NCBI GenBank assembly: GCA_964645775.1
Contig: CAZYBU010000005.1
Span: forward strand, 13,339 to 77,338
Direction: 5' to 3'
Source: an uncultured Leptospirales bacterium
Lineage (GTDB): Bacteria > Spirochaetota > UBA4802 > UBA5550
Length of the DNA: 64,000 nucleotides
The notes under the pieces are model-generated. The model made no database searches, was not told the DNA's origin, and saw only the letters and a program-made list of their open reading frames with translations. Made by a program: the position numbers and the translations under genes. This document shows, one piece after another, positions 5,956 to 48,050 of the stretch. Position 1 is the first letter of the stretch. Each line of letters begins with the position of its first letter.

Positions 5956-6942
5956 CTAATTTTTAAGCTTTCCCGCTTCCCGGAACCATTCGATGGTGTC
6001 CCGGACCGTCTCTTCAAAGGGGCGCGGCCGGTACCCCAGTTCCCGGCTGGCCTTTTCGTGGGATATGTGCCGGTGCATGGAGAGTGCCTCCACCGCGCTG
6101 GGAGTGAACTTCGGTGTGCTTCCCGTGATTTTGCTTATCCAGATGGTAGGGTAAGCTACCAGGTAGGCCAGCCATGAAGGGAGGGCCAGGGTCGGTACCT
6201 TACGATTATACATGTCTCCGATCAGTTCGGCCACGTCCCGTATGTGCACCCAGTGACCCGTGAGAAGGTAGGACTCGCCTGAACGTCCCTGCTTTTCGGC
6301 CGACAGGGCTCCGTTCACAACGTCCCGGACATCGACCCAGTTGTATCCTCCATCAATGAGGGCCGGGATGGTCCGGTTGTAAATATCAAGAAAGACCGAG
6401 CCCATGCGGGAGGGTTTATAATCGCAGGGGCCCACGACCCCTCCGGGATTCACGATAACCGCGTTCAGGCCCTTTTCCTTTACGGCATTCTGGACAAGGG
6501 TCTGACCCCTGGCCTTGGACCGGTCGTAGGCCATGCTCCCGCTATTGATGCAGAGGGGGCGGGTTTCGTCTATGATCCCTTCCACCGGGTCGCTTTCAAA
6601 GGCGTGGATGGAGCTGAAATGAACAAGACGGGAGACATTATTCTCCAAACAGGCCTGGACCATGTTCTCCGGGCCGTCGATGTTCGTTTTGTAGACAAGT
6701 CCGCCTTCAGATCCTACGATCGATATCAGAGCAGCGCAATGATAAACAGTCTCAGCGCCATCGGTCAGGCGAAGAAGGGATTCATAGTCAAAGATATCGC
6801 CCTTCACCTCTTCCAGGTCAAGACCTTCAATGGCCCGCCTGTCTTCCCTGACAAGGACGCGGACCCGCCGGCCCTGCTTCAGCAGGGCGCGCACCAGGTT
6901 TCCCCCTATGTGACCTGACGCGCCGGTAACAGCTACTGTCAT
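5956..6942 (-). CDS. NAD-dependent epimerase/dehydratase (extended SDR)
   Basis: Rossmann motif VTGASGHIGGNLVRALL near the N-terminus. GGAGG lies 6 nt upstream of ATG 6942, so I prefer this to the longer track start at 6987. Confidence 0.85.
   Translation of the reverse strand: MTVAVTGASGHIGGNLVRALLKQGRRVRVLVREDRRAIEGLDLEEVKGDIFDYESLLRLTDGAETVYHCAALISIVGSEGGLVYKTNIDGPENMVQACLENNVSRLVHFSSIHAFESDPVEGIIDETRPLCINSGSMAYDRSKARGQTLVQNAVKEKGLNAVIVNPGGVVGPCDYKPSRMGSVFLDIYNRTIPALIDGGYNWVDVRDVVNGALSAEKQGRSGESYLLTGHWVHIRDVAELIGDMYNRKVPTLALPSWLAYLVAYPTIWISKITGSTPKFTPSAVEALSMHRHISHEKASRELGYRPRPFEETVRDTIEWFREAGKLKN
6498..6508. repeat. GGGTCWGACCC palindrome copy (W=T)
   Basis: Exact 11-mer inside the epimerase CDS, decoded G-Q-T on the coding strand. 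Confidence 0.95.
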
Positions 6943-7088
6943 GGTATTCCTCCGAAACTGATGATGGTTCTTTCTGGAAAAATGCAAGAAATAATCAACG
7001 AGTTTTTGTGTACATCGGCTGTCGGCTCGATTATTATGAGATTCTTCATCTCTGTATCTTTCAATGGATGAGTAAATGACTGTCTCTC

Positions 7089-7110
7089 ATTATTCTATTG
7101 ACAGAATAAT
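7089..7110. promoter_or_regulatory. Perfect 8-6-8 inverted repeat ATTATTCT-N6-AGAATAAT (candidate operator)
   Basis: Read directly. It overlaps a TTGACA hexamer (7098-7103) about 25 nt upstream of the kinase-remnant ORF. Confidence 0.25.
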
Positions 7111-7132
7111 ATTTTCCGTATCGCCCTAGATT

Positions 7133-16879: not shown

Positions 16880-17386
16880 ATGAATTATTCTGAAAATGAG
16901 CCAGAAACCTCTTACAATCTCCGGGAGCCGGTTCCGGAGGATGGTCAGCACCTGTATAACCTTGTGAGCCGGTCCGAACCACTGGACCTGAACTCTCTTT
17001 ACGCCTATATTCTTGTCTGTGATCATTTCCGAAATACGTCGGTTGTCGCGGAGGATGAAGAGGGAGCCGCAGGTTTCATATCAGGGTATTCCATCCCGGG
17101 AAAAGATAATACCCTCTTTATCTGGCAGGTAGCCGTGGACCCGCGCATGCGCCGTAAGGGCCTGGCAGGGATAATGATCCAGAATATTCTGGAACGTAAC
17201 AATCAATTTCGTTATATTGAAACTACTGTTACGCCGTCAAACGACGCCTCAGACAAGCTTTTTCGTTCTGTGGCAGACAAACTTAATACGGAACTGACGG
17301 TACTGGAGTACTACCCGGCTTCATTTTTTAGCGGCTCGGATCATGAGCCAGAGCACCTCTACCGGATCGGCCCCTTTACCGTTTAA
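16880..17386 (+). CDS. ectA: L-2,4-diaminobutyrate acetyltransferase
   Basis: GNAT fold with LFIWQVAVDPRMRRKGLAG, and it is the first gene of an ectABC arrangement. Confidence 0.85.
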   Translation: MNYSENEPETSYNLREPVPEDGQHLYNLVSRSEPLDLNSLYAYILVCDHFRNTSVVAEDEEGAAGFISGYSIPGKDNTLFIWQVAVDPRMRRKGLAGIMIQNILERNNQFRYIETTVTPSNDASDKLFRSVADKLNTELTVLEYYPASFFSGSDHEPEHLYRIGPFTV

Positions 17387-19142: not shown

Positions 19143-19153
19143 GAGGAACAGGC

Positions 19154-34562: not shown

Positions 34563-37500
34563 TTGATCATGACGAGGAGAAAAAGAGTATTTTTATTGTC
34601 GATCATTATGGCCGTTCTGGCCGGGGCTCTTCTCCTGGTCCTTACCAGGTTGCAGGTAGAGAGCAATCTTATCTCCTCCCTGCCCGGTAATGATCCGGTT
34701 CTGAAACATTCCAGGGAGATTTTCCAGGCCAATCCCATACAGAATGTTGCCCTTGTAAGCCTGACCCTTACAGGCTCTGACCCCGGTATCCTGCACGACG
34801 CTGCTGAGGAAGTTAAGGAGAAGATGTACGGCAGCGGTCTCTTTCGTTCCGTGGGCGTGGAAGAGATGGGCGAGAGTTTCACGGAGATGCTTTTTTATAC
34901 CGCCAGGAATCTTCCCATCCTTTTTAGCGAGGAGGAACTGAAGAAGGCCAAACCGAATCTTGAGAAGGAAAAGGTGAGGCTTCGAGTCCGTGAGATTTAC
35001 CGGGAACTGACCGGTTTCGGCGGCATCGGTCAGGGTGAACTGATTTCCAGGGACCCGCTTCAGCTCCGGCACCTTCAGTTAAAAAAGATGGCCGGTCTCC
35101 TGCCCGTCGGAGATGTCCGGTACAGGGAAGGTAACCTTGTTTCATCCGACGGTCGGCATCTTCTTGTCATTGCCCGGACCTCCCCTGAGAAGGGAGAACC
35201 ACTGGAAGTCGACTCGTTCCTGAACGATCTAAAGAACGACCTGGAAAGAAAATATGACATCCTTGTTCATCACGCCGGGGCTTACAGGGCATCCGCTGAT
35301 AATGAGTCCATGATACGTGCCGATGTCCGGAGGGCGGTCATGATCGCCACTGTCTGCATTATACTTCTTCTGGTTTTTTCCTTTCCCAGACCCTGGATCG
35401 GTCTCCTGGCCCTTCTCCCCGCGCTGAGCGGTATCCTGCTGGCCATGGCCATCTTCGCTCTTTTCGGTATTCCCCTCTCCCTCATTGCCATCGGATTTGG
35501 AGGCGCCATCGTATCCATTTCCGTCGATCATGGCGTGGCTTATATCCTTTTTCTGGACCGCCCCTATCGGACCGAGGGGAAGAGAGTGGCCCGCTACGTT
35601 CGTAATCTGGGGCTCCTTGCCGTTATTACGAGTGTGGGCGCCTTCTTTTTTCTGGGGGTAAGCGGATTTCGAGTCTTCTCTCAGATCGGACAGTTCGCGG
35701 CCCTGGGGATTCTTTTCTCGTTTATTTCACTTCACCTGTTCTTTCCGGTACTGGTCCCCTCCCTTCCCCCTGCGAAGCGCTCCAGAAGCGTCCTTCTCCA
35801 GAGATTGACACTCCACATCGATCTGAAGAGGCTTTTTCCCCTGCTGGCGGGTCTGACCCTCATCTTTGCTTCAGTGATCCTCTTCAGGCCCCCGCATTTT
35901 GCGGCTGACATACGATCGATGAACTCCCTCCGTCCTGATACCCTTAAGGCGGAAGAGGCGATACAGGAGACCTGGGGTGACTGGGGAAGGAGCGGATACC
36001 TCATGATCCGGGCGGAGGATACCCTGATCCTGAGGGAAAAGAACGACAGGATCCATGATATTGCCTGTCAGGTTGGGGTCAGACCCGCTCTTCTCACCAC
36101 GGATTTCTTCCCTTCCATGGATGTCCGCCGGAAAAACCTCGCCTCCTGGAAGGAATTCTGGAACAGGGAAAGAAGGGAAGAACTACGCAGAACTTTCAGC
36201 CGGGCCGCCCGGGAAGAAGGATTACGGGCTTCGGTTTTTGAACCTTTCTTCGAAAAACTGAAAGACCCGGAGATAAAGGAGATCCGCATTGACGATGAAA
36301 TGCTCGATCTCTTCGGAGTCCGCAAAGAGGGTGATGGACTGGTCCAGTATGTGCCGGTCCAGGCCGAATCGAAGGAGAAGGCCTTTGAGTTTTTTAACGG
36401 AATTTCGAAAATGGAGGGGGTCCGGTACTATGATCCCGGTCTCTTTACGGAACGGCTTTCCCGATCTCTGGCCAGGGGATTTTTCCTCGTTCTGGGTCTG
36501 GTGGCCGCGGGCGTAACGATATTTCTTTTTTTCTATTTCCTGGATATTCGTCTTCTCCTTCTCTCCCTGGCCCCTGTCTTTTTTGCACTCCTTGCTACCA
36601 TGGCGATTCTCTCCCTTACGGGAGGAAGGCTCGGTCTGCCGGCTCTGATGCTATCCGTGGTGATATTCGGCATGGGGATCGATTATTCCCTGTATTATAT
36701 CCGCTCCTTCCAGTTTTCCGGGAGCGAAAGGGAGGAGACACTGGGATTAATACGGTTGACCATACTGGTGGCAGGCGCCTCCACCTTTTTCGGTTTCGCT
36801 TCCCTCTCTTTTTCCAGCCACGCCCTTCTTGAGAACGCGGGGATCGTCACCGGGCTCGGCATCGCGGGAACCCTGGTTTCAACTCTTATCATTGTTCCCT
36901 GGGGACTGGAAAAGATCGAGTCCTCGCGCAATCATAAAAGTATCGATACCGTGGAGCCAGGTTCCCGTAAACACAGAACCCTTACCCTGAAACGGTATTC
37001 CGGCCTTGAGGCCGGTGTGCGTCTCTTCGCGCGTTTCAAGATGATCCTTGATCCGATGTTTCCGCGACTTCTCGATTTTATCGGAGACGGGAGGGTCATC
37101 CTCGATATTGGCTGCGGCTATGGTGTCCCATCCAGCTGGCTTATGACCGTGATGCCGGAAATTCGTGTATATGGAATCGATCCGGATGACATGAGAGTCC
37201 GGGCAGCGAGCCGGGCCTGGGAGGGCAGGGGAGTGGCGCGCGTGGGTTCAGCTCCCTCTCTTCCAGAGGAAGGAGGCAGGGCAGACACGATCCTCCTTGT
37301 CGATGTTATTCATTATCTTGATGATGAGGAGTGTTCCCGGCTTTTCGAGAACTGCGCCCGGAGGCTTCATGGAGGAGGACGCGTCGTTATTCGCGTCACG
37401 GTGCCGCTGGAAGGGAAAAGGACTTTCTTCCGGTTCATGGAAGACCTGGCCGGAAAACCGACCGTGTTTCGTTCAGTGGCTCATATAACAAGGATGGCTT

Positions 37501-37595
37501 CAGAAAAAAACCTTTCTGTTTGTCACACGGAACCGACGGCCTCGGGCAGGGAAGAGACATGGATTATCCTCTATCGGCGCAGGGAAGGAGAATGA
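34563..37595 (+). CDS. MMPL/RND-type exporter fused to a C-terminal SAM-dependent methyltransferase (ApeM + ApeB-like)
   Basis: About 800 aa with two clusters of 5-6 TM helices separated by soluble loops. This is followed by VILDIGCGYGVPSSW (SAM motif I) and ILLVDVIHYLDDEE. Confidence 0.75.
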   Translation: MIMTRRKRVFLLSIIMAVLAGALLLVLTRLQVESNLISSLPGNDPVLKHSREIFQANPIQNVALVSLTLTGSDPGILHDAAEEVKEKMYGSGLFRSVGVEEMGESFTEMLFYTARNLPILFSEEELKKAKPNLEKEKVRLRVREIYRELTGFGGIGQGELISRDPLQLRHLQLKKMAGLLPVGDVRYREGNLVSSDGRHLLVIARTSPEKGEPLEVDSFLNDLKNDLERKYDILVHHAGAYRASADNESMIRADVRRAVMIATVCIILLLVFSFPRPWIGLLALLPALSGILLAMAIFALFGIPLSLIAIGFGGAIVSISVDHGVAYILFLDRPYRTEGKRVARYVRNLGLLAVITSVGAFFFLGVSGFRVFSQIGQFAALGILFSFISLHLFFPVLVPSLPPAKRSRSVLLQRLTLHIDLKRLFPLLAGLTLIFASVILFRPPHFAADIRSMNSLRPDTLKAEEAIQETWGDWGRSGYLMIRAEDTLILREKNDRIHDIACQVGVRPALLTTDFFPSMDVRRKNLASWKEFWNRERREELRRTFSRAAREEGLRASVFEPFFEKLKDPEIKEIRIDDEMLDLFGVRKEGDGLVQYVPVQAESKEKAFEFFNGISKMEGVRYYDPGLFTERLSRSLARGFFLVLGLVAAGVTIFLFFYFLDIRLLLLSLAPVFFALLATMAILSLTGGRLGLPALMLSVVIFGMGIDYSLYYIRSFQFSGSEREETLGLIRLTILVAGASTFFGFASLSFSSHALLENAGIVTGLGIAGTLVSTLIIVPWGLEKIESSRNHKSIDTVEPGSRKHRTLTLKRYSGLEAGVRLFARFKMILDPMFPRLLDFIGDGRVILDIGCGYGVPSSWLMTVMPEIRVYGIDPDDMRVRAASRAWEGRGVARVGSAPSLPEEGGRADTILLVDVIHYLDDEECSRLFENCARRLHGGGRVVIRVTVPLEGKRTFFRFMEDLAGKPTVFRSVAHITRMASEKNLSVCHTEPTASGREETWIILYRRREGE
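35849..35859. repeat. GGGTCWGACCC palindrome copy (W=T)
   Basis: Exact 11-mer in the MMPL gene, decoded G-L-T. Confidence 0.95.
36076..36086. repeat. GGGTCWGACCC palindrome copy (W=A)
   Basis: Exact 11-mer in the MMPL gene, decoded G-V-R-P. Confidence 0.95.
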
Positions 37596-38461
37596 GAATA
37601 GCCTTTTATACTATCCTGGTCTTCCTCTCCAGGTTCCTGGGTACATGGATACTGGATGCGGGCATCCTCGTGGTAACAGCCGGGTTCTTTATCTTATTCC
37701 CGGGACGAGTCAAAAACAGCATCCGTTTTTTTCAGAGAGTTGAACCGGACCGCTCCTTTTTGCATTATCTCTCCCTGGCCTGGAAACAGTTTCAGGCCTT
37801 CTCTTCCATTTTCAAGAACCGGATCGTACTGGAGAAGGGTGAGGTATCGTGGGAGAGCGAAGGCATGGAATACCTTCAACATGCGTTGGAGGAAGGGAAA
37901 GGGGCTATCCTTCTGATGTCCCATTACGGAAACTGGGAGATGGCCGCCCATCTGCTCCGAAACCAGGTGGAGGGTCTGACCCTCTTCATGGGAGAGAAGA
38001 AAGACGAGAAACTTGAAAGGCCTCAGAAGGAACACCTTGGGAAGAACAGGGTCGAGGTTGTTGCCGTACCGGAAATGGAGAACAATCCTTTTCAGCTTAT
38101 CGACGCCCTTACGGTCCTGAAGAGAGGCGAGATTCTTTCCCTGACGGGAGACCGGCTCCGGGGAGAGGATGACCGAAGTCTGACGGTCGACTTCCTGGGA
38201 GGTAAAATCAAGGTACCTGAAGGTCCTCATCTCCTGGCCCGGCTGAGCGGGGCCCCTCTTCTTGTTTTTTTTGCAAGGATCCGGGAGGATGGAGGATTGT
38301 ATTTCCGGTTTTACCGGCCCTGTCACGTGCCAAACTCGGGAAAAAAGGAGAGGGAAAAGGTCATTCGAGAATCAGCCCTGCGATACGTGGAACTGCTGGA
38401 GGAGCAGGTACGGGAATCACCATGGAACTGGTTTCATTTTGAGAATGTTTTTATCGATTGA
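37592..38461 (+). CDS. LpxL/HtrB-type lysophospholipid/lipid A acyltransferase (ApeD-like)
   Basis: N-terminal TM segment and the MSHYGNWE catalytic motif. ATGA overlap with the exporter stop. Confidence 0.7.
   Translation: MRIAFYTILVFLSRFLGTWILDAGILVVTAGFFILFPGRVKNSIRFFQRVEPDRSFLHYLSLAWKQFQAFSSIFKNRIVLEKGEVSWESEGMEYLQHALEEGKGAILLMSHYGNWEMAAHLLRNQVEGLTLFMGEKKDEKLERPQKEHLGKNRVEVVAVPEMENNPFQLIDALTVLKRGEILSLTGDRLRGEDDRSLTVDFLGGKIKVPEGPHLLARLSGAPLLVFFARIREDGGLYFRFYRPCHVPNSGKKEREKVIRESALRYVELLEEQVRESPWNWFHFENVFID
37972..37982. repeat. GGGTCWGACCC palindrome copy (W=T)
   Basis: Exact 11-mer in the LpxL-type acyltransferase gene, decoded G-L-T. Extends to the 15-bp palindrome GAGGGTCTGACCCTC. Confidence 0.95.
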
Positions 38462-38651
38462 CCGGCTGTCCGCGCTTTTACTTCGGAATGTGCTTGAATT
38501 CATACCCCGCTGTGAAAAAATTGTAACAGACCTGTTTCCATGGTTGTCCCTCTGTCATCAGACGTCACAGACAAGGGGTATCCGTTCGTCATGACCTGGA
38601 ACAGAGTAAAGGACAACCCGGGGAACGGAGGCCGTGCAAGGAGCATAAAGT

Positions 38652-38894
38652 ATGAAAACATCGGAAATATTTGACAAGATAAAAGATTTTTTCATGGAAG
38701 AATTCGAGATCGAAGAGGAACTGATCACTATGGATGCGGGTCTTTTCACGGACCTGGGGCTGGACAGTATTGACGCCCTGGACATGGTGGGTATGCTCGA
38801 ATCTAATTATGATATTGAAGTGAAAGAGAACGAAATTAAAAATATACGCACAATTCGAGACGTGGTACAATTTATATCCGGAAAGGTTGCATGA
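38652..38894 (+). CDS. Acyl carrier protein
   Basis: 80 aa with the phosphopantetheine site LGLDSIDALDMV. Confidence 0.85.
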   Translation: MKTSEIFDKIKDFFMEEFEIEEELITMDAGLFTDLGLDSIDALDMVGMLESNYDIEVKENEIKNIRTIRDVVQFISGKVA

Positions 38895-39238
38895 GCACAG
38901 ACAGGGGATACGCGTTGACGAATCTCTCAAGGCAGGATGGGTCGTTGCGGGCCCGGGTCGATATCCCGGCCCATTCTTTCTGGTTTGACGGTCACTTCCC
39001 GGGGGAACCCATACTCCCCGGGGTAGCGCAGATCATGATGGTACGGGATGTCATACTGGCCGGTTTCTCGCCTCCAGGTGAGTCCTTTTCTCTGAAACGG
39101 ATTAAGTTCAACCGGATTGTCCAGCCTGATGCCTGCCTGGATGTTCTGGTGGAGAAGAAGAGAGATTCCATGTATTCCTTCTCGCTTGCTACGGAAGGTG
39201 AGACCGTCTCGAGCGGGTTCATGGAGTTTGACCTGTGA
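38891..39238 (+). CDS. Hot-dog fold dehydratase (FabA/FabZ-like; ApeI-like)
   Basis: FDGHFPGEPILPGVAQIMM motif. ATGA overlap with the ACP stop. Confidence 0.7.
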   Translation: MSTDRGYALTNLSRQDGSLRARVDIPAHSFWFDGHFPGEPILPGVAQIMMVRDVILAGFSPPGESFSLKRIKFNRIVQPDACLDVLVEKKRDSMYSFSLATEGETVSSGFMEFDL

Positions 39239-39813
39239 TTACGGCCGCTGTCTCTCTGGCCGCATACCTCGCCGGGTCCATTAATGTATCGATTATCCTT
39301 TTTCGTATACTGGGATGGAAGGATCCCAGGGAGGCCTTCAGCGGAAATCCCGGGGTCACTAATGTCTACCGTATCAAGGGACCGGTATTTGCGGGTATAA
39401 TCCTGCTTCTGGACCTGGGCCGCTCTTTCCTTGTGGCATGGGGGGCGTCCCTTTTTCTTCCCCTTCACCTTGTTCCGGCGGCCGGCCTGGCCCTTATGAT
39501 CGGTAACCGTTATCCCTGCTTCCACGGTTTCAGGGGAGGGAAAGGCGTCTCGGCCTTTATAGGGTTTACTCTTTACGCCCATCCTCTCTTCGCGGCCGCT
39601 TCCATGGCGCTCTGGGTTATGATCTACGGTATTATACGTATACCCTTTATCGCTTCCTTCGGTATGTCCCTGGCCCTCATGACCGGTCTTTTCCTTTACG
39701 TGGCGATGGACCCAGTGGGGGTGCTCCTGGCCTTTCACATGCTTGTGCTTGTGGTAATGAATCACAGAGGAAACATCCTCGCCCTCATTAACCGGAGAAG
39801 CGAAGAAGCATGA
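39235..39813 (+). CDS. plsY: PlsY-family acyl-phosphate:glycerol-3-phosphate acyltransferase paralog
   Basis: AAYLAGSIN, SGNPGVTNVYR and FRGGKGVSAFIG motifs. The conserved His of the G-H-x-F-P motif reads Asn here (IGNRYPCF). GTGA overlap with the dehydratase stop. Confidence 0.75.
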   Translation: MITAAVSLAAYLAGSINVSIILFRILGWKDPREAFSGNPGVTNVYRIKGPVFAGIILLLDLGRSFLVAWGASLFLPLHLVPAAGLALMIGNRYPCFHGFRGGKGVSAFIGFTLYAHPLFAAASMALWVMIYGIIRIPFIASFGMSLALMTGLFLYVAMDPVGVLLAFHMLVLVVMNHRGNILALINRRSEEA

Positions 39814-39816
39814 TTG

Positions 39817-40728
39817 TCATTCTCCCTTCAGATCCTGTTCTCCTGTCACTATCTCTATCCCCTTCAGGGTCCGTTTAAGAAGCCCGGAGAGAACACGGCC
39901 CGGTCCGCACTCGATAAAGGTTCTCCCTCCTTCCGCGTAAGCCCGGATGACCGTTTTTTCCCACTGTACCGGGCTGTGGAGCTGTAGAATCAGCTTCTCC
40001 CGGATCTTTTCCGGGTCCTCCTCCGGTTCACCTGTTACGTTATCGATGAAAAGGGTAGCCGGCTGTTTGAACGTGTACCCTTTCAAAAAGATCCCGAATT
40101 CCCCGGCCACAGGTTCCATGATCGTGGAATGAAAAGGAGCGGAGACCTTCAGCTCCCGGCCGATTCCCAGTTTGTCACGGTTTATCCTCTCTTCAATTTC
40201 CCGGATCGCTTCCCTTCGACCGGTAAGGACGAACTGGTCAGGGGAATTGTAATTAGCCACCTCCAGAATTCCGGGGCCGTATTCTTCCGTGATGATATTG
40301 AGAACGGCTTCAAGGTTTCCCCTCAAAACAGCCAGCATTCCGCCCGGTCTCTTCTCCGAAGCCCCTGCCATGAGCTCTCCCCGCTTTCGGACAATGTTCA
40401 GGCCGTCTTCCAGGTCGAGAACGCCGGCCTGGACAAGAGCGGTATACTCGCCCAGGGAATGGCCCGCCACGATGGCCGGGGGACCGTGTTTCGCTTCTGC
40501 TCTCCGTCCGTAAAGAAAACCCATAAGAAGAAGGGCTGGCTGTGTGTTCTCCGTTCGGATAAGCTCCTCCTCAGGCCCCTTCTCCATGAGGTCTGTCAAC
40601 CCGGTTCCCAGAACCTCATCCGCCATGGCGAGGATACCTTTCTCGTTCTCCGAGAGGGGAGCCGCCGTCGAAATCATTCCGACATACTGAGATCCCTGGC
40701 CGGGAAAAATATTCACTGTCCCTTTCAT
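39817..40728 (-). CDS. fabD: Malonyl-CoA:ACP transacylase
   Basis: FPGQGSQYVGM and the GHSLGEY active-site serine motif. Confidence 0.9.
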   Translation of the reverse strand: MKGTVNIFPGQGSQYVGMISTAAPLSENEKGILAMADEVLGTGLTDLMEKGPEEELIRTENTQPALLLMGFLYGRRAEAKHGPPAIVAGHSLGEYTALVQAGVLDLEDGLNIVRKRGELMAGASEKRPGGMLAVLRGNLEAVLNIITEEYGPGILEVANYNSPDQFVLTGRREAIREIEERINRDKLGIGRELKVSAPFHSTIMEPVAGEFGIFLKGYTFKQPATLFIDNVTGEPEEDPEKIREKLILQLHSPVQWEKTVIRAYAEGGRTFIECGPGRVLSGLLKRTLKGIEIVTGEQDLKGE

Positions 40729-40736
40729 GCGCTACC

Positions 40737-42086
40737 TCATTCCGATTCTTTCAGGATTTCCAACACTCTCTTCCGGTCAATCTTTCCCGTGGCGAGGAGG
40801 GGAAACTGCTCCACGATACGTATCCTCCGTATATGGGGACCGGCCATAAGGGTTCGGTTTATCCGGCCACGCGCTTCAGTCAGGCTGAGCTTTGACTGGA
40901 TTACGCAGGCTGGTTCATTATCTTCCCTGTTATGCGTTCTTATTATGGCCGCGTGGCACTCTTCGATGCCGTCGATTCCGCGGATCTTCTCTTCCAGCTC
41001 AGCGAGGTCTATCCTCCTGCCGGCAACCTTGACAATGGAATCGGACCTGCCGAGAAGGCGGAACTGTCCGGGAGAAGCCGTAATCGCCTCCACCCTGTCA
41101 TTGCTGGTAAAGAAACCCTCGCTGTCTGCCGGCAGGTCCGGGGAGAGGAAGGGGGACCGGACACTGAGTCTCTCGTCCTGGATATGCAAGTCGATGAGAT
41201 CAAAGGCCCTGAAGACCTCGTCTCCCGGGTGCTGGACCCTCCAGGCGATACCGCCGGTCTCCGTGGAACCGAATATCTCGGTAACCGGAACCCCGGTCGC
41301 CTCATAAAAGGCCCGGGATTCTCCCTCCGGCAGAGGTGCGGCCGATGAGAGGGCCAGGCGGAGCGAGGGCATTACCGGATTCGAACGGTTCAACAGTCGG
41401 TAAATCGATGGGGTGGCCACGAGTACGTTCCCTTTCTTCTCCCGGCCGGCCCGGATGATTTCCCCCGGGAAGATCAGAACCTCACCGGCCACGGGACACC
41501 CTCCCAGAAGGGGGAGGAAGACCGTGAAAAGAAGACCGTAGATATGATAGGGTGGAACGGATGGTATTATAATGTCGTCAGGAGAGACTCCGAGAAAGGA
41601 TACCTGGAAAAGGATTTCAGTCAGTATATTGGCCGGTGTTTTGCTCCAGATCCGGGCCGTGCCTGTTGAGCCTCCCGTGAAAAGATTGAGAAAACGTCTG
41701 TCAGGATCGATTCTTCCCGGGGTATTCCCGGCAACCTCTTCCTTAAATGGCTGAATCAGGGTCAGACCCTCCAGAGGTATGCTCTCCCGGTCAGTAACCA
41801 CAATTCTCTTCCCTGTGAAGGAAAAGGCCTCCTCCAGAATTTCCGGTGTCATGGAATGGGGAAGTATAATCTCCGCTTCTCCGGCCATGGAGGCGACCAG
41901 GACGGCGGCCATGAGTTCCTTCGACTCCGTGTAGAGGCAGATCCGGTCTTTCCCGTAAGGGGCCAGGAGTTCTCCTGTCCGCACCGCAAGTTCCCTGATC
42001 TGGCCCCGGGTTGCGCCTCCCTGGATAAAGGGCGACTGTTCCGGGTACTCACCGAAAAGGGCGTCAACTGTTACTGGCAGGTTCAT
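40737..42086 (-). CDS. AMP-dependent synthetase/ligase (aryl-acid activating; ApeH-like)
   Basis: FTGGSTGTARIW (P-loop-like) and FGSTETGGIAWR motifs. ATG 42086 preferred, whereas the track start is 42152. Confidence 0.7.
   Translation of the reverse strand: MNLPVTVDALFGEYPEQSPFIQGGATRGQIRELAVRTGELLAPYGKDRICLYTESKELMAAVLVASMAGEAEIILPHSMTPEILEEAFSFTGKRIVVTDRESIPLEGLTLIQPFKEEVAGNTPGRIDPDRRFLNLFTGGSTGTARIWSKTPANILTEILFQVSFLGVSPDDIIIPSVPPYHIYGLLFTVFLPLLGGCPVAGEVLIFPGEIIRAGREKKGNVLVATPSIYRLLNRSNPVMPSLRLALSSAAPLPEGESRAFYEATGVPVTEIFGSTETGGIAWRVQHPGDEVFRAFDLIDLHIQDERLSVRSPFLSPDLPADSEGFFTSNDRVEAITASPGQFRLLGRSDSIVKVAGRRIDLAELEEKIRGIDGIEECHAAIIRTHNREDNEPACVIQSKLSLTEARGRINRTLMAGPHIRRIRIVEQFPLLATGKIDRKRVLEILKESE
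41759..41769. repeat. GGGTCWGACCC palindrome copy (W=A)
   Basis: Exact 11-mer in the AMP-ligase gene, decoded G-L-T. Confidence 0.95.
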
Positions 42087-42864
42087 TCTTTTCCTTCTGC
42101 CGTTCTGACCGGTATTCTTCAAGTATCTTCTTGCTTTTTTCCGCCAGTTCATCAGGGGATGATCTTTTGTTTCCCTGCCCGGGATTCAATGTCTCCACGT
42201 ATTCAAGTTCTATTCGGCGGGGCCGGCAGAGTGTTAAGAAAAAGGTGCCGGGAGAAAAGACCTCGCCGCTTCCTGAGATGTGGAGAATGTGGATGGGCAC
42301 GCCCGATCTTCTGGCAAGCTTGAAGGCGCCCTCATTGAATGGGGCGATGCTGCCGTCCCTGCTCCGCGTCCCCTCGGGGAAGATAAAAAGGATTCCTCCC
42401 TCCTGGAAGAACCTGTCCAGGCTTTCCACGCTTTTCCGCACGCTCTTTTTCATCATGCCGTCCATGCGTGAGGGAATATAACCGGAGCCGTGTATAAGGG
42501 TTCCGAAAAAAGGGACCCGGAAAAAGTCGTGACGGGAGATGGTTTTCTGTTTTTTAAAGAGAGAGAGAAGCAGGATCGGGTCCAGGTAGGAGAGATGATT
42601 ACATACGACGACGGAGGAGTCGAGCCTCCGGATTTTTTCGTCGATACTGATCTCCACCCTGGATATCGCCTGCAGGAGCGCGAAAAAGATATGGAAGAAG
42701 CGATGGTTAAGTCCCTGGAACAGCTTCTCTCTCCGGGAAAACCGGAACCAGGACACGAGATAAAAAGGAAAGAAGAGAATAAGGAACCCGAAAAGGAAGA
42801 AGCCCCAGATTAAAAGGGTGCCGAAACGGTTATGCAGATTGCAGAGGAGTCCTCTTCGTTCCAA
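42064..42864 (-). CDS. plsC: PlsC-type 1-acyl-sn-glycerol-3-phosphate acyltransferase
   Basis: N-terminal TM segments, an HX4D motif in VVCNHLSYLDP, and FPEGTRSRDG. Confidence 0.8.
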   Translation of the reverse strand: MERRGLLCNLHNRFGTLLIWGFFLFGFLILFFPFYLVSWFRFSRREKLFQGLNHRFFHIFFALLQAISRVEISIDEKIRRLDSSVVVCNHLSYLDPILLLSLFKKQKTISRHDFFRVPFFGTLIHGSGYIPSRMDGMMKKSVRKSVESLDRFFQEGGILFIFPEGTRSRDGSIAPFNEGAFKLARRSGVPIHILHISGSGEVFSPGTFFLTLCRPRRIELEYVETLNPGQGNKRSSPDELAEKSKKILEEYRSERQKEKNEPASNS

Positions 42865-42874
42865 TCATTTCTCC

Positions 42875-43492
42875 TTACCGGGTTTCCGGGATGTCCGGTT
42901 TCGTGAAGAGTGTGTCTTTCAGTGAGACGTTCAGTTCGACCGAAGAGAACCGGATGGTAGTTCCGCTCCCTTCCTTCTCCATGATCATGATACCTGAGAT
43001 TATTCCTTTCCTGGGAGAGAGTGTGAGAAGAATCTTCTCAATAAAACGCCTGACCCGGGGTGAGGAGGCCCTGAGTGTGATAGTATCTCCTTCCAGGCTC
43101 GCCTGGAAATGGGGGTTCTCCCGGAAGTTTCCCTTCATCCACTCCAGGACATCGGAAAGGACACGTTCGATTCCATGGTGTGAAGTCGATTCTACGGGAA
43201 GGAATTCTCCATCCTGCTCCCTGAAATGCGTAAGCCTTCCTTCACTGAGAATGAGTACCTCCCTGACCGGGGAAAGGTATTCCCAGCGCAGGGAACCGGG
43301 ACTCCGGTAATAGAAGGTTCCCTTCATGATCACGTCCCGGCTTAAGAGGGGAGATTTTCTGATCTGGACAAAGCGCGCCCGGATAGATGAGATCGATGAG
43401 GTGGATTCCCGAATGCTCTCCCAGCTTTCCCGCCAGGCCTGAAGGGGTAGTGCGGACAGCAGACATATAACTACGATAATGGATTTTTTCAT
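42875..43492 (-). CDS. LolA-like lipoprotein-carrier-fold protein (ApeL-like)
   Basis: Signal peptide, then ARFVQIRKSPLLSRDVIMKGTFYYRSPGSLRWEY, which resembles the LolA signature. Confidence 0.65.
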   Translation of the reverse strand: MKKSIIVVICLLSALPLQAWRESWESIRESTSSISSIRARFVQIRKSPLLSRDVIMKGTFYYRSPGSLRWEYLSPVREVLILSEGRLTHFREQDGEFLPVESTSHHGIERVLSDVLEWMKGNFRENPHFQASLEGDTITLRASSPRVRRFIEKILLTLSPRKGIISGIMIMEKEGSGTTIRFSSVELNVSLKDTLFTKPDIPETR

Positions 43493-43496
43493 GGGG

Positions 43497-44228
43497 TCAG
43501 AGCATCCCGCCGTTTACGGAGATTGTCTGGCCGGTTATGTAGGATGCCTGTTCCGATGCCAGGAAAAGGGCCGCCCTGGCGACCTCCTCCGGTTGGCCGA
43601 TTCGACCCATGGGTATCATCTTCCTGATTTCATCAACCGGCGCGTCGGCTATCATCTCCGTGTCTATAAGGCCGGGGGCGATGACGTTCACCCGGATACC
43701 CAGGCGGGCCACTTCCGTGGCTACCGACCGGCTCGCTCCGATCAGCCCTGCCTTGGCCGCAGAATAGTTGGCCTGGCCCCGGTTCCCGGTCAGTCCCGAA
43801 ATAGAAGAGATGGTTATTATGGAACCCCTTTTTCTCCGTATCATACCCTTGAGGACCGGCCGGGTACAGTTATAGAATCCCCTGAGTGAAACGTTTATGA
43901 CCCGGTCCCACTCTTCGCCCGGCATCATGGCGAAAAGACCGTCCGCCGAAACTCCGGCGTTGTTTACCAGCAGGTCGAGGGAGTCCCGGTCCGAATGGAT
44001 TTTTTCCACGGACCTGCCTGCCGCTTCTTCGTCGGTCACGTCAAAGGGAAGCAGTTCCCCCTCACCTCCGGCTGATTTGATCAGTTCAAGGGTCTTTTCG
44101 GCTTCCGCCTGGTTGGATCGAAAGTTGACATAGACGTGATACCCATTAGCAGCCAGTTCCAGGGTGATAGCCCGGCCGATACCCCTGCTCCCCCCGGTTA
44201 CAAGCGCGCTTTTCCTTTCGTTACTCAT
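43497..44228 (-). CDS. fabG: 3-oxoacyl-ACP reductase (FabG-like; ApeQ-like)
   Basis: VTGGSRGIGRAI, NNAG, YSAAKAG, and the C-terminal GQTISVNGG. Confidence 0.9.
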   Translation of the reverse strand: MSNERKSALVTGGSRGIGRAITLELAANGYHVYVNFRSNQAEAEKTLELIKSAGGEGELLPFDVTDEEAAGRSVEKIHSDRDSLDLLVNNAGVSADGLFAMMPGEEWDRVINVSLRGFYNCTRPVLKGMIRRKRGSIITISSISGLTGNRGQANYSAAKAGLIGASRSVATEVARLGIRVNVIAPGLIDTEMIADAPVDEIRKMIPMGRIGQPEEVARAALFLASEQASYITGQTISVNGGML

Positions 44229-44246
44229 GACTGACTCCTTACCTTT

Positions 44247-44681
44247 TTACCCCTCCCGGTAATGTTCCGGTTTATATGCCTGAATGGTGATGTCAGCCAC
44301 GTGTTCTCCAGATTCTATGGTTGTCGTTCCGGTGGCCGTAAGGAAGACCTTCTCTCTGATTGTCACATCATCGACCCGGACGACAAGAAAATTTCCCACC
44401 GGAAGGGTCGACCGGGAAAAGCGGGCACTTTTAATACCCACGAGCCATCCTCTGCCTCCTGAACCCGGTTTCTCCTTCTCTTCCCAGCTCTGGAGAAAGC
44501 TGACGGTCTGGGCGAAGCATTCAACGGCGAGAAGGGATGGTGCCGATCCGTTCGTAACGGCAGGCCATTCCGGTCGGATCAGATTTTTGGAGATTACCCG
44601 GCCCGGCTCCACTTCGAGTATGGTATCCAGCAGCCTGAGCGTGTTTCTGTGGGAGATATAGTCTTCAATGAAAAAACTCAT
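44247..44681 (-). CDS. Hot-dog fold dehydratase (ApeP-like)
   Basis: A 144-aa ORF between the KR gene and the divergent ACP gene. The FabZ/MaoC-like fold is inferred from length, context and weak motifs. Confidence 0.6.
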   Translation of the reverse strand: MSFFIEDYISHRNTLRLLDTILEVEPGRVISKNLIRPEWPAVTNGSAPSLLAVECFAQTVSFLQSWEEKEKPGSGGRGWLVGIKSARFSRSTLPVGNFLVVRVDDVTIREKVFLTATGTTTIESGEHVADITIQAYKPEHYREG

Positions 44682-44731
44682 AGTATTTCATTTTCTCACG
44701 AAAAGGCTGTGTCAAATCATTTTTTGTTGAC

Positions 44732-44759
44732 TTGACAGTGTCCGCCTCTCCTTTACCAT
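44732..44759 (+). promoter_or_regulatory. Candidate promoter for the ACP / KS-CLF operon in the divergent intergenic region
   Basis: TTGACA (44732-44737), 16 nt, TACCAT (44754-44759). Confidence 0.3.
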
Positions 44760-44842
44760 GGGCTCAATCAGATTAAAGAAACTCTCACCTGAATCTCTGT
44801 AAGAGGCTCAGGCAGGATGTAATCGCAGAGGTATAACACCCG

Positions 44843-45106
44843 ATGGAATTGAATGAACTGAAGGAAGACCTTAAAACACGGATCATCGAGACCCTTAATC
44901 TGCCTGAGATCACCCCTGATGATATCCCGGAGGACGGTCAGCTCGTGGGGGGTGATCTGGGAATAGATTCCATAGACGTCCTGGAACTGGTCGTGATGAT
45001 TGATGAAACCTACGGTGTCCGGATCGAGACCAGGGAAGAAGGGGAGACGGTCTTACGTTCCCTCAACAGTCTCGCTGAACATATACACACATCCATGAAA
45101 GGATGA
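44843..45106 (+). CDS. Acyl carrier protein
   Basis: 87 aa with DLGIDSIDVLELVV. Confidence 0.85.
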   Translation: MELNELKEDLKTRIIETLNLPEITPDDIPEDGQLVGGDLGIDSIDVLELVVMIDETYGVRIETREEGETVLRSLNSLAEHIHTSMKG

Positions 45107-45116
45107 AACCGGTCCC

Positions 45117-47231
45117 GTGATGGAAAGGGTCTATATCGCGGGATACGGTGCCGCTTCTCCTGCCGGGACCTCGGCAGAAGAAATCTTCAACACCCTTAAA
45201 AAAAACGAATCCGGTCTCTCTCTGCCTAAGCGTCTTTCTCTGCGACAGGAACCGAAGCCGGTGGGCGAGACAGACATCGACGTTTCTCCCTCCCTGCCGC
45301 GAAGTCATGGACTGGCACTGCGGGCCGCCCGGGAGGCTTTGGAAGGGACGGGAATCGTGCCCGATGGCATCGTCCTGGGTGGAACAACGGGAGGCATGGA
45401 GAGGACGGAAGAGCACCTTCAAGGGGAGTGCTCCGACCCCTCATGTTACGAGAACCATGCCCTGGGTGACGTGGCCTCCTGCCTGGCCCGGGAGATGGGA
45501 ATAACCGGGCCGGTTATCACTATCTCCAACGCATGTGCTTCGGGAACCGCTGCCCTGAAGGTCGCCATGAGACTCATCCAGGAGGGGACCTGTTCAACGG
45601 TCCTGGCGGGAGGCGCGGATTCCCTCTGCAGGCTGACATACTACGGTTTTCATTCGCTTCAGCTCATTGACCCGGAAGGGGCGCGTCCATATGACCGGGG
45701 CCGGCAGGGTATGACCGTCTCAGAAGGCGCGGCCATCCTTCTCCTCGCAGCCGGTAAGACGAACCTGAACAGGAAGGCGGAACTCCTGGGGGTGGGCCTC
45801 TCCTGCGACGCTCACCACCCCACGTCTCCTCATCCGGAAGGGGAGGGAGCCCGGACCGCCATGGCATCAGCCCTGGAGGAATCGGCCGTGAATCCGGGAG
45901 ATGTGGATTACGTCAACCTCCACGGCACCGGGACCCGGGATAATGACCTCTCCGAAGGTAAAGCTATACGCTCCCTCTTCGATGATCGCCTGCCACTTCT
46001 CTCTTCGATAAAAGGGATAACAGGTCACACCCTGGCGGCTGCGGGCGCCCTGGAGGCCGTGGTATCAACCATGGCCCTGGAAAAGGGTTTTGTGCCTGGC
46101 AATTACGGGTTCCGTGATCCTGACCCCGAGATAGGGATACGTCCCCTGGAGGCTCCCCTTTACCGGGACCTTTCCGTGGTTCTGTCGAATTCGTTCGGCT
46201 TCGGCGGGAGCAACGCATCGGCCCTTTTCGCCAAACCTGGCCGTTTTGCCTCGAAGACCCTATCCAGGGGAAGGGGCTACCTCTCCATCCTCTCCGGCGC
46301 CTGTGTGAGCGGTGCCGGCAGAACGGATGAAGCCCTGGCCGCCCTGGACGAGGGAGAATACTTTAAAGGGCCTGTTTCCTCTGATGCCCTTGTCGGTTCG
46401 CTCCAGCCCCGGGCGGCGAGAAGGCTTAAGCGAGTGTCACTATTGGCCCTCTCCACGGCCCTTGAGGTCGTTGAAGGGGGAGAAGTCCCCTCTTCCGTCT
46501 ATTTCGGAACAGGATGGGGGGGGCTCACGGAGACGGACAACTTCCTCACCCGCCTGTTCTCATCGGACGAACAGTATTCCAGTCCCACGGACTTTATAAG
46601 TTCCGTGCATAATGCCCCTGCCGGCCAGATATCACTCCGTTTTAAGTCGACCGGTCCCAATGTCACGACCACGGGAAGGGACCTGTCCTTTGAACAGGCC
46701 CTCCTCTCCGCTTCGTTTCTCCCGGCAGCAGGGGAGGGTCCCCTTATTGTGGGAGGTGCGGACGAGTATCATTCCAGGCTCTCGCCTCTCTTTGATCCCA
46801 CAGGTGATTCTGACGGTGCAGGGATGTTTCTCTGCAGGTATGAGAGGGAGCCGACCGGGATATCCATCCATGATCCGCTTCTCGCTTCCTTTTCTACGGA
46901 GACCCTTGTCTCCCTTCTGGATGGGGTGAAACCGGGTATGATATTCATGAGGTTCACAGGCCCCCGGAGAGAAGAGTTTCGGGAAAAGACACTCAATCTT
47001 CTTGAATCCCATGCGCCGGTTGTACCACGGTCCGATTATTCCGAACTCCTCGGAAATTTCGCGACAGTATCGGCCGTGGCGTCGGTTCTGGTTTATCGCT
47101 TTATGCTGGCCGGAAGGGTACCCTCCTTTTTTACGGGTGAGAGTGTCGATATTGCCGGCAAAGACGTCCTGATGCTCAATATTGGCGAGCATTTCTCTTC
47201 GTTTACCTTTCGAAGGGCATCCTCCCGCTGA
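45117..47231 (+). CDS. Ketosynthase fused to a chain-length-factor-like domain (ApeO + ApeC-like)
   Basis: The first ~390 aa form a complete KS (ISNACASGTAAL, DAHHPTSP, NLHGTGT, SNSFGFGGSNAS). The following ~310 aa are KS-like but lack the Cys/His/His triad (SSVHNAPAGQISL, LIVGGADEYH). Confidence 0.8.
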   Translation: MMERVYIAGYGAASPAGTSAEEIFNTLKKNESGLSLPKRLSLRQEPKPVGETDIDVSPSLPRSHGLALRAAREALEGTGIVPDGIVLGGTTGGMERTEEHLQGECSDPSCYENHALGDVASCLAREMGITGPVITISNACASGTAALKVAMRLIQEGTCSTVLAGGADSLCRLTYYGFHSLQLIDPEGARPYDRGRQGMTVSEGAAILLLAAGKTNLNRKAELLGVGLSCDAHHPTSPHPEGEGARTAMASALEESAVNPGDVDYVNLHGTGTRDNDLSEGKAIRSLFDDRLPLLSSIKGITGHTLAAAGALEAVVSTMALEKGFVPGNYGFRDPDPEIGIRPLEAPLYRDLSVVLSNSFGFGGSNASALFAKPGRFASKTLSRGRGYLSILSGACVSGAGRTDEALAALDEGEYFKGPVSSDALVGSLQPRAARRLKRVSLLALSTALEVVEGGEVPSSVYFGTGWGGLTETDNFLTRLFSSDEQYSSPTDFISSVHNAPAGQISLRFKSTGPNVTTTGRDLSFEQALLSASFLPAAGEGPLIVGGADEYHSRLSPLFDPTGDSDGAGMFLCRYEREPTGISIHDPLLASFSTETLVSLLDGVKPGMIFMRFTGPRREEFREKTLNLLESHAPVVPRSDYSELLGNFATVSAVASVLVYRFMLAGRVPSFFTGESVDIAGKDVLMLNIGEHFSSFTFRRASSR

Positions 47232-47240
47232 CGTGAATAT

Positions 47241-48050
47241 ATGGATGTACTCAGTACATGGAGAGGACCCCTTTCCCTTTATCATCGTTCCCTGATTATG
47301 GTTGTTATCCTTGTACCGGTTCTGGGACTTATTGAGCCTCTCCTGGCCCTGATTCCGGTATCCCTGCTTGTGGCAGTGATAGTTATCGCTCCCTTTTTTC
47401 CCGCATTCAGTTTTTACCTTCCGGTTGTAAGCCGTGGCAGGAGGGAACAACAGGCCGTGGCTCTGACCTTTGATGACGGACCGGACGTGAGTGTTACACC
47501 CCGTCTCCTGGATCTTCTTAAAGAGCACGGTGTGAAAGCCACATTTTTCCTCGTGGGGAAGAAGGTTGAAACAAACCCGGCAATTGTCCGGCGCATACTG
47601 GATGAAGGACATGACCTCGGAAATCATTCCCAGAGTCACGATCCCCTGCTGATGTTCCGGAGCCGGACAAGGATAAAAAGTGAAATCGAAAAGGCCCAGG
47701 AGACATTTGCCCCCTTCGGGGTCAGACCCCGTTATTTCCGGCCCCCGGCAGGGGTCACGGGACCTCGATTGAAACCGGTCCTTACGGAGCTTGGAATGCT
47801 CTGCGTGAATTTCTCCAGGAGGGCGAGGGACTTCGGTAACCGTAGAAAGGTTCCTGTCTCACGGATACTGGGTCGCTCCCTTGCCGCAGGGGACATCATT
47901 CTCCTCCATGACATCTCCCCTGATGGAGGATTAGAGCCTGAGAGGGTGATACAGGAATTTGATCAGCTTATCAGAGATATAATGAATAAAGGGTACAGTA
48001 TTGTATCCCTTGAAGAACTGACCGGCTTTCCGGTCATGGATCGAATCTGA
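47241..48050 (+). CDS. Membrane-anchored polysaccharide deacetylase (NodB homology domain)
   Basis: Two N-terminal TM segments, then ALTFDDGPD, GNHSQSH and ILLHD motifs. Confidence 0.8.
   Translation: MDVLSTWRGPLSLYHRSLIMVVILVPVLGLIEPLLALIPVSLLVAVIVIAPFFPAFSFYLPVVSRGRREQQAVALTFDDGPDVSVTPRLLDLLKEHGVKATFFLVGKKVETNPAIVRRILDEGHDLGNHSQSHDPLLMFRSRTRIKSEIEKAQETFAPFGVRPRYFRPPAGVTGPRLKPVLTELGMLCVNFSRRARDFGNRRKVPVSRILGRSLAAGDIILLHDISPDGGLEPERVIQEFDQLIRDIMNKGYSIVSLEELTGFPVMDRI
47719..47729. repeat. GGGTCWGACCC palindrome copy (W=A)
   Basis: Exact 11-mer in the deacetylase gene, decoded G-V-R-P. Confidence 0.95.

Follow-up and report, generated by a model that had tools for sequence, protein, structure and literature searches.

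Why does one 11-bp palindrome recur, through coding and intergenic DNA alike, around a single gene? This question is raised by a 64-kb stretch of DNA (hereafter the window) from an uncultured Leptospirales bacterium (assembly GCA_964645775.1, contig CAZYBU010000005.1, positions 13,339 to 77,338), in which the word GGGTCWGACCC is found in 17 exact copies with unrelated flanks. At the peak of these copies lies a gene (26094-26684) for a Y1/HUH nuclease that resembles the REP-associated tyrosine transposases (RAYTs; REP, repetitive extragenic palindrome). Words of the same family are associated with related Y1 genes, nine loci in all; they stay close to the gene, arise by substitution and are conserved. 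Here, we propose that GGGTCWGACCC is probably this lineage's recognition word for a tamed Y1 nuclease of the RAYT/TIRYT type, in a pairing of gene and repeat like that of REPtrons or TIRtrons.

Excess of the palindrome in the window

The original prediction, which was made from the sequence alone, had listed 17 exact copies and five one-mismatch copies, and all 22 were found at the positions given there. It had estimated about 0.03 expected copies; Markov models with orders from 0 to 5, fitted to the window itself, gave 0.03-0.25 (higher orders are contaminated by the motif itself), and dinucleotide-preserving shuffles of the window gave a mean of 0.11 copies and a maximum of 2. When up to one mismatch was allowed, 22 sites were observed versus 1.48 expected. 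For all lengths between 8 and 12, no k-mer is more frequent in the window than the word, and of the 22 GTCWGAC heptamers present, 17 are part of a full 11-mer.

Fourteen copies are intragenic, in 11 genes whose Pfam assignments are solid, and the other three are intergenic; the intragenic copies are decoded as G-L-T (six), G-Q-T (four), G-V-R-P (three) and G-S-D-P (one), exactly as had been tallied. All three phases are used, as claimed, but unequally (10/3/1, chi-square p=0.008). In the GGG-GTC-AGA-CCC phase, all three copies have A on the coding strand because TGA must be avoided there. The symmetry beyond the 11-mer that had been pointed out is present, with a 13-bp form six times and a 15-bp form three times, but the site read with A at its centre has a direction: its 5' neighbour is a purine at 17 of 17 sites, compared to 11 of 17 on the opposite strand (p=0.018). 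Therefore, the word is really oriented, RGGGTCAGACCC.

The original prediction had named a longer (>50 bp) repeat family as a finding that would speak against a DNA-level word. The pairwise flank identity over ±38 nt was 0.280 at the sites and 0.286 at random positions. With random flanks and no indel at any of nine intragenic sites (see below), a longer repeat family or the insertion of a mobile unit was rejected. We also rejected hairpin recognition as the unifying feature: the 11-mer folds with only -1.6 kcal/mol (15-17-mers, -4 to -6 kcal/mol), no fold at all was obtained for GGGGTCAGAGCA, the form most common in relatives, and the ±1 flanks pair at 7 of 17 sites, which is about the chance level from the base frequencies of both flank positions. 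No Rfam family was found to overlap any site in the window.

A RAYT-like Y1 gene at the density peak of the sites

About 70 kb of the host genome could be read, and all of the DNA analyzed here is metagenome-assembled. Sixteen of the 17 exact copies fall within 20.5-47.7 kb, that is, within 27 kb (binomial p=3e-6), and none was found in the 5.7 kb to the left of the window (locus L186) or between 48 and 64 kb. The median distance from site to Y1 gene is 3.9 kb (permutation p=5e-5), and there are three sites in the first 2.6 kb, after which the density declines steadily to 0.04 per kb at distances of more than 20 kb. The Y1 gene is located where the site density is highest; the next copy downstream of it is 426 bp away, inside alr. 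The analogies offered by the original prediction, the cyanobacterial HIP1 palindrome and DNA uptake sequences, imply a genome-wide word and are not supported, since here and at eight other loci the word is concentrated locally around the Y1 gene. Of the four roles that it had listed, the site recognized by a Y1 transposase is now favored, with a Y1 gene in the middle of the cluster, but not in the form of a minimal hairpin, which is weak at the 11-mer and absent from GGGGTCAGAGCA.

The open reading frame (ORF) at 26094-26684, which is not mentioned in that earlier reading of the window, matches Pfam Y1_Tnp (PF01797, E=1.1e-9), and its best NCBIfam match is REP_Tyr_transpos (NF047646; 68 bits, E=7.7e-19, model coverage 4-146/146). 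With the NCBIfam IS200 model, the score is 19.7 bits (cut-off, 55). The HUH and tyrosine motifs are kept in all 33 homologues of the alignment. An AlphaFold2 (AF2) model built on these homologues reached a predicted local distance difference test score (pLDDT) of 93, and a fold search with it gave 4ER8, the E. coli RAYT with its REP hairpin, as the best PDB match (E=1.7e-8, template-modelling (TM) score 0.65/0.74), followed by the TnpA proteins of ISDra2 and IS608. A sequence search against PDB chains gave no match, so that the structural matches come from the fold search alone. No Pfam domain other than Y1_Tnp was found in the protein, including a C-terminal helix-turn-helix (HTH) domain. By its Y1_Tnp fold, HUH motif and tyrosine motif, the ORF belongs to class 2 of the Y1 superfamily (RAYT-like; Y---NP).

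The Y1 gene does not behave like an insertion sequence (IS). It is present in a single copy in the window, where tnpB and IS ends are absent, and in L082, a JGI contig with about 81% nucleotide identity to the window and 11 word copies in 14.7 kb, the ORF is intact at the same position with 89.5% identity. A fixed locus and an intact ORF at this divergence indicate vertical inheritance. The gene coincides with the minimum of GC content in the window (26000-27000), with 37% compared to about 51% overall and 41-45% in the neighbors, which suggests a foreign origin. No Y1 homologue was found in the scan of viral contigs, and about 10,000 cluster representatives are matched by a profile of the Y1 clade (E<=1e-10).

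In a close relative of the window (L083; ENA ERZ1757541 contig_7359, 278.8 kb, 99.2-99.4% nucleotide identity), a 2,212-bp IS21-family element (rve transposase and IstB; L083 6781-8992) lies inside the Y1 ORF, with an 8-bp target duplication at window 26307-26314.

Related words around related Y1 genes

The host belongs to the Spirochaetota, and its nearest species-representative genomes reach only 59% amino-acid identity in nicotinate phosphoribosyltransferase (NAPRTase). We took the loci of Y1 homologues with 41-54% identity, all from Spirochaetota, and counted k-mers de novo in each locus. In seven Y1 loci from six lineages, the word that ranks first or close to first is a member of one family, G[G/C]TC-A-GA[G/C]C. 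The form GGGTCAGAGC(A/C) occurs 10 times in L307, 11 in L311, 5 in L314, 9 in L317, 12 in L320 and 7 in L321, where the word extends to GGGGTCAGAGCCTGTTA, while L322 has GCTCWGAGC in nine copies. L307 and L311 are two diverged paralogues in one genome, each with its own halo. Strain assemblies of the relatives are at least 99% identical to each other. The motif (G/A)GGGTCAG is present in every lineage.

In the relatives, nearly all copies are found less than 4 kb from the Y1 gene; the pooled word density was 0.9-1.4 per kb in this range and roughly 15-fold lower, with 0.04-0.15 per kb, farther out. A copy lies upstream of the Y1 gene in all lineages (66-132 nt before the start codon in the Spirochaetota lineages), whereas a copy directly after the stop codon was seen only in L314, L320 and L278. 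The neighboring genes differ each time: purE/guaA, cytochrome/radical SAM, ABC permeases, CorA/HGSNAT, BipA/Cu-ATPase, ECH/IlvD and patatin/TatD, and pncA/alr in the window. The Y1 gene is the sole gene common to the nine halo loci. As a control, 80 spirochaete loci without a Y1 gene (1.24 Mb) contained no copy of the palindrome and one asymmetric word, and the count of the top 10-mer had a median of 4 in the control loci compared to 7-15 in most Y1 loci.

One further locus was found from the word alone. Scans of IMG/VR and a metagenome collection were run with the 15-mer GAGGGTCWGACCCTC only, and almost all of the matches listed were single chance occurrences. The metagenome scan also returned L278 (Ga0066639_10041382, GC 39%). 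This contig encodes a Y1 protein of 232 amino acids with 31% identity, NHFH and YIHLNP, and carries three tandem GAGGGTCWGACCCT copies within about 50 nt just upstream of the Y1 ATG and two at the 3' end of the gene. Its Y1 gene is the only one among the 222 scan loci, counted among the matches listed.

Each of the two perfect palindromes differs by a single base from the asymmetric form GGGTC-A-GAGCC, and comparison of the words suggests that the window lineage symmetrized this form to GGGTC-W-GACCC and the L322 lineage, in the other direction, to GCTC-W-GAGC. The palindromic look of the window word would then be due to a single base change, GGGTCAGA-G-CC to GGGTCAGA-C-CC, which made a near-palindromic ancestral word self-complementary. 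The intragenic share of the copies is 14/17 in the window and 8/9 in L322, the palindromic lineages, and 13/54 in the asymmetric lineages.

Several of the relatives carry the word in arrays: L311 with a 20-bp period five times (6975-7074), L278 with a 17-bp period three times (3198-3242) and twice (2493-2520), and L321 with four copies 51-64 bp apart (5563-5747). These intergenic arrays resemble REP clusters of the BIME type (bacterial interspersed mosaic elements). In L322, the gene-proximal word is at the center of a 37-bp perfect palindrome, attatgtctcattgGCTCTGAGCcaatgagacataat (3009-3045), 98 bp upstream of the Y1 start, and a further copy is found inside the Y1 gene itself, at 3527. In L307, a group II intron reverse transcriptase (RVT_1 and GIIM; 5187-6416) lies 3.6 kb from the Y1 gene and is absent from the sister assemblies L309 and L310.

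Substitution origin and conservation of the copies

The original prediction had proposed that orthologues be aligned to see whether the copies arose by point substitution or by insertion. Nine intragenic sites were aligned with orthologues or solved structures (NAPRTase, two sites; alanine racemase, two; ammonia-lyase, one; the L320 Cu-ATPase, three; the L307 PurE, one), and none had an indel (0/9). For the other site-bearing genes, tblastn found too few orthologues in the fetched loci. The alignments show that the intragenic words were made by substitution, at times by several non-synonymous changes, as where NPxLMA became EGQTLG in NAPRTase. At least 25 spirochaete relatives keep pncA next to the NAPRTase gene and lack both the Y1 gene and the word; therefore, the host genes are resident and the words were made in place.

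Once made, the words have been kept. When the window is compared with L082, identity is complete at 9 of 9 sites but at only 12.6% of random 11-mers (p=8e-9), intergenic sites included, and the third-codon positions inside the sites are identical in 23 of 23 cases, compared to 59.6% outside (p=7e-6). These results strongly support the earlier claim that the constraint acts on the DNA and not on the protein. Three near-cognate copies and one asymmetric-type word are likewise identical in the two, and the lone difference is one base at 22873. The ratio of exact to one-mismatch copies, 17:5, argues for active maintenance and not for passive decay.

Proposed role of the Y1 protein

We propose that the Y1 protein would bind the oriented word RGGGTCAGA(C/G)CC, and probably nick and rejoin it, where DNA in the vicinity of its own gene is exposed, and that it would act mainly in cis, as transposases do. 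Words arising by mutation within its reach would be protected from loss, either by enzyme-directed biased repair (a local ratchet, comparable to very-short-patch repair) or by selection for binding sites, and the resulting accumulation of words would thin with distance from the gene. We infer this account of how the halo is written. A stronger version, which we put forward tentatively and consider rather doubtful, is that a tamed HUH/Y1 enzyme works as a "sequence writer" in cis, in which a nicking or repair bias at near-cognate sites ratchets its own word into the DNA within a few to about 20 kb. If so, it would have forced amino-acid changes on housekeeping proteins and the sites would then have been frozen for millions of years, which would be a localized molecular drive without a described precedent and the first functional clue to the large REP-less RAYT-like classes.

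Several points weigh against a recognition word of the Y1 protein. What ties the protein to the word is, throughout, purely comparative evidence. The protein scores 68 bits, below the NCBIfam RAYT equivalog cut-off of 80 bits, and its tyrosine motif, YLGYNP, is not the signature of subclass 2.1. Known Y1 enzymes recognize single-stranded DNA hairpins and a guide tetranucleotide, whereas this word family has neither a conserved hairpin nor GTAG. To our knowledge, no Y1 enzyme has a base-changing activity, so that the writing or ratchet step is without biochemical precedent. In L083, where the IS21-family element makes a natural knock-out of the Y1 gene, 11 of 11 overlapping sites are intact, which is a weak point at 99% identity. 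The window halo reaches ±20 kb with 82% of its copies intragenic, compared to ±4 kb and 24% in the relatives with asymmetric words, and is thus about five times wider than the halos at the other loci. Finally, with about 70 kb read, the host genome may hold other clusters or a low genome-wide density of the word elsewhere.

RAYT-like members that are not tied to classical REPs have had no known function and no recognized DNA partner (PMC6006769). Such genes are common, and the nine loci give one clade of them a defined partner word of 10-11 nt. Search criteria of the kind "extragenic, 16-mer, hairpin" miss RAYT partners like this one. As a result, two questions become testable: which DNA is bound or cut by the Y1 protein, and whether the evolution of nearby sequence can be biased by a nuclease.

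Alternative explanations

Three alternatives are each improbable in our estimate, to about the same degree. The first is a palindrome of the HIP1 kind, spread over the genome and kept by an orphan methyltransferase and/or a repair bias of the very-short-patch type, with the Y1 gene as a bystander. HIP1 (GCGATCGC, cyanobacteria) is also a short, frame-independent palindrome that originates by substitution and is conserved at orthologous positions beyond expectation (PMC5861425, PMC4390886), which are features that the copies described here share. However, HIP1 is genome-wide, with about one copy per gene, and is tied to orphan methyltransferases, whereas here 16 of 17 sites fall within 27 kb of the roughly 70 kb read and the same Y1-centered locality is repeated at eight other loci. 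No methyltransferase, restriction, Vsr or ParB gene was found among the genes of the window, and no copy of the palindrome was found in the 1.24 Mb of related spirochaetes.

The second, with a similarly slim chance, is that the copies are binding sites of another dimeric protein, as in a centromere-like parS-type cluster or a cluster that organizes the nucleoid, and that the Y1 gene is there by coincidence. A cluster of 10-25 palindromic sites inside genes over 10-30 kb would resemble the parS clusters, and a near-palindrome would suit a dimer on duplex DNA. Yet neither ParB nor another candidate is encoded nearby, and the cumulative GC skew climbs steadily across the window with no sign of an origin or a terminus. 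A coincidental Y1 gene is also hard to reconcile with the nine halo loci having no other gene in common, and a symmetric dimer site with a word that is asymmetric and oriented in most lineages.

In the third, the order of cause is reversed: word clusters pre-exist for a reason of the host, and a mobile Y1 gene homes into them as an insertion target. Elements of the IS200/IS605 type do insert beside specific short target words (PMC6006769), and both the foreign-looking GC content of the Y1 gene (37% vs 51%) and its different locus in every lineage would fit. However, no word cluster without a Y1 gene was found in the 1.24-Mb control or at pncA-NAPRTase in the relatives that lack the Y1 gene. 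In addition, the word variant changes with the Y1 lineage and the density peaks on the gene every time, and we regard this order of events as having little probability.

Still less probable is that the segment from 20 to 48 kb is a horizontally acquired island from a word-rich donor genome, perhaps integrated at tRNA-Trp. The tRNA-Trp gene is 1 kb past the last site and the GC content is low at about 22-29 kb, but there is no integrase, the GC content of the segment ranges from 37% to 59%, and pncA-NAPRTase is syntenic and spirochaete-like in relatives without the Y1 gene; an island would also not account for the halos of ±4 kb that other lineages have in their housekeeping genes. A DNA uptake signal like those of Neisseria and Haemophilus, also a short word that tolerates coding regions and builds up by substitution, is hardly credible given the local distribution, the lack of competence genes nearby and the lack of a comparable bias in relatives.

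Comparison with known gene-repeat systems

The closest published description of the system is the TIRYT/TIRtron of Di Nocera et al. TIRYT genes are RAYT-like and REP-less and are flanked by inverted repeats that share GGGGWSAS, with families of moderate abundance in some of the genomes (Di Nocera et al. 2013, PMC3733652); they correspond to subclass 2.1 of TnpAY1 (Quentin et al. 2018, PMC6006769). The window system is similar to these, and to the Bertels group 1 RAYTs, in that a RAYT-like gene without a GTAG REP is flanked by short repeats, the GGGGTCAG part of the word fits GGGGWSAS, the copy numbers are moderate rather than in the hundreds, and the repeats are at times tandem or clustered, as in L278, L311 and L321. 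Proteins of subclass 2.1 are recognized by NH[YF]H/NHVH, Y[IV]HLNP/YIELNP, a length of about 238 amino acids and a C-terminal HTH-like domain. The L278 protein carries the signatures NHFH and YIHLNP. The window protein fits in NHFH, but it differs in its length (190 vs about 238 amino acids), in YLGYNP and in having no Pfam C-terminal HTH. Moreover, the published repeats are extragenic terminal inverted repeats (TIRs) beside the gene, whereas here words of 10-11 nt extend kilobases into coding sequence. The original prediction had known of no description of this word; the exact word GGGTCWGACCC was indeed not found in the searched literature, but it does fit the GGGGWSAS of the TIRYT flanking repeats, so that the statement was only half right.

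With the REPtrons (REP or REPIN with RAYT; E. coli TnpA-REP, 4ER8), the window shares a vertically kept single-copy Y1/HUH gene beside its cognate repeat and a repeat variant that co-varies with the protein lineage. Classical REPs are imperfect hairpins of 20-40 nt with a 5' GT[AG]G, are extragenic, occur in hundreds of copies dispersed over the whole genome and spread by insertion (PMC6006769; PMC5581495). In contrast, the window repeat is 10-11 nt long, lacks GTAG and a conserved hairpin, is local within the roughly 70 kb read, is intragenic in 14 of 17 copies and is born by substitution. In the literature on REPs, REPINs and TIRs, we found no word halo that enters coding sequence by substitution, decays with distance or is conserved between species, so that the spread by substitution into resident coding sequence at an amino-acid cost, the distance decay and the invariance across species are new relative to these repeats.

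The IS200/IS605 family shares the Y1 HUH fold and the catalytic motifs, but the window gene is without TnpB, subterminal hairpin ends or an identical multi-copy element, and is syntenic in two species. DNA uptake sequences and uptake signal sequences (DUS/USS), and very-short-patch repair, are models for how a word can build up in coding DNA by point mutation together with a transmission or repair bias, as we propose here; these act genome-wide through the uptake machinery or Vsr-Dcm, whereas the present word is limited to the surroundings of the Y1 gene.

Sites and neighboring features

Table 1. The Y1 gene and the copies of the word in the window. Amino acids are those decoded from the site; L082 is the relative with about 81% nucleotide identity.
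Feature	Position	Strand	Gene or location	Reading and remarks
Y1/HUH RAYT-like gene	26094-26684	+		Probable ATG 26112; 190 amino acids; HUH motif NHFH; Tyr motif YLGYNP
Exact copy	6498-6508		NAD-dependent epimerase gene 5956-6987 (-)	G-Q-T; sole copy far left of Y1 gene
Exact copy	20585-20595		MscS-like gene 20515-21480 (-)	G-S-D-P; conserved in L082
Exact copy	22149-22159		MiaB-like radical-SAM gene 21577-22854 (-)	G-L-T; conserved in L082
Exact copy	22970-22980		Intergenic	Conserved in L082
Exact copy	24023-24033		NAPRTase gene 23837-25306 (-)	G-V-R-P; no indel vs 11 orthologues; conserved in L082
Exact copy	24541-24551		NAPRTase gene 23837-25306 (-)	G-Q-T; EGQTLG vs NPxLMA in orthologues; conserved in L082
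Exact copy	25999-26009		Intergenic, 103 nt upstream of Y1 ATG	Gene-proximal; conserved in L082 despite diverged flanks
Exact copy	27110-27120		Alanine racemase gene 26814-27962 (-)	G-Q-T; ungapped vs PDB racemases; conserved in L082
Exact copy	27479-27489		Alanine racemase gene 26814-27962 (-)	G-Q-T; ungapped vs PDB racemases; conserved in L082
Exact copy	28102-28112		Intergenic	Conserved in L082, flanks diverged
Exact copy	29430-29440		Aromatic amino-acid ammonia-lyase gene 28789-30438 (+)	G-L-T; ungapped vs PDB lyases
Exact copy	31434-31444		FakA/DegV-like gene 30847-32589 (+)	G-L-T; 17-bp palindrome with flanks
Exact copy	35849-35859		MMPL-methyltransferase fusion gene 34563-37595 (+)	G-L-T
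Exact copy	36076-36086		MMPL-methyltransferase fusion gene 34563-37595 (+)	G-V-R-P
Exact copy	37972-37982		LpxL-like acyltransferase gene 37331-38461 (+)	G-L-T
Exact copy	41759-41769		AMP-binding enzyme (AMP-ligase) gene 40737-42152 (-)	G-L-T
Exact copy	47719-47729		Polysaccharide deacetylase gene 47241-48050 (+)	G-V-R-P; rightmost copy
One-mismatch copy GGGTCAGACCT	19754-19764		Aspartokinase gene	Identical in L082
One-mismatch copy GGGCCAGACCC	22873-22883			Exact copy at orthologous L082 site
One-mismatch copy GGGCCAGACCC	25478-25488		pncA (isochorismatase family)	Identical in L082
One-mismatch copy GGGTCAGACCT	25624-25634		pncA	Identical in L082
GGCTCTGACCC	34773-34783			One mismatch from palindrome; identical to the relatives' asymmetric word GGGTCAGAGCC
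Asymmetric word of the relatives' type GGGTCAGAGC	21936-21945	+	MiaB-like gene	Identical in L082
Asymmetric word of the relatives' type GGGTCAGAGC	43494-43503	+	LolA-like/ketoreductase gene junction	

On its left, the halo is adjoined by an ectoine cluster (ectA, ectB, ectC and an aspartokinase gene, 16880-20518), which has no exact copy and the one near-copy at 19754. Two tandem 12-bp units, GGGTCACCGTCA, abut the site at 20585 (20560-20595) inside the 3' end of the MscS-like gene, and L082 differs in length at these units. To the right, an aryl-polyene/flexirubin-like lipid gene cluster (about 28789-48050) hosts seven sites. It comprises an aromatic ammonia-lyase, a thioesterase, a FakA/DegV-like protein, three ketosynthases, a GT2 glycosyltransferase, an MMPL-methyltransferase fusion of 1010 amino acids, an LpxL-like acyltransferase, a further acyltransferase, an AMP-ligase, a LolA-like protein, a ketoreductase and a deacetylase. 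The tRNA genes of the window, tRNA-Trp (48751-48824) and tRNA-Pro (57253-57326), have no integrase nearby.

Outside the halo loci, two observations were made. In a control spirochaete locus (L012, CALOFP010000004.1), there are eight dispersed copies of CAGTGTCGCC in 21 kb, the top count of 44 controls, which could represent a further short word of the iterated kind. Two to four copies of GGGTCWGACCC, at a spacing of 23-100 bp and with the same A/G...T/C flanks, were also present on unrelated metagenome contigs, several of which have about 70% GC: L281 (1328-1510), L283 (11-159, at the contig edge), L234 (1590-1637), L284 (3426-5147) and L261 (889-922). No Y1 gene was seen in the fetched parts of these five contigs.

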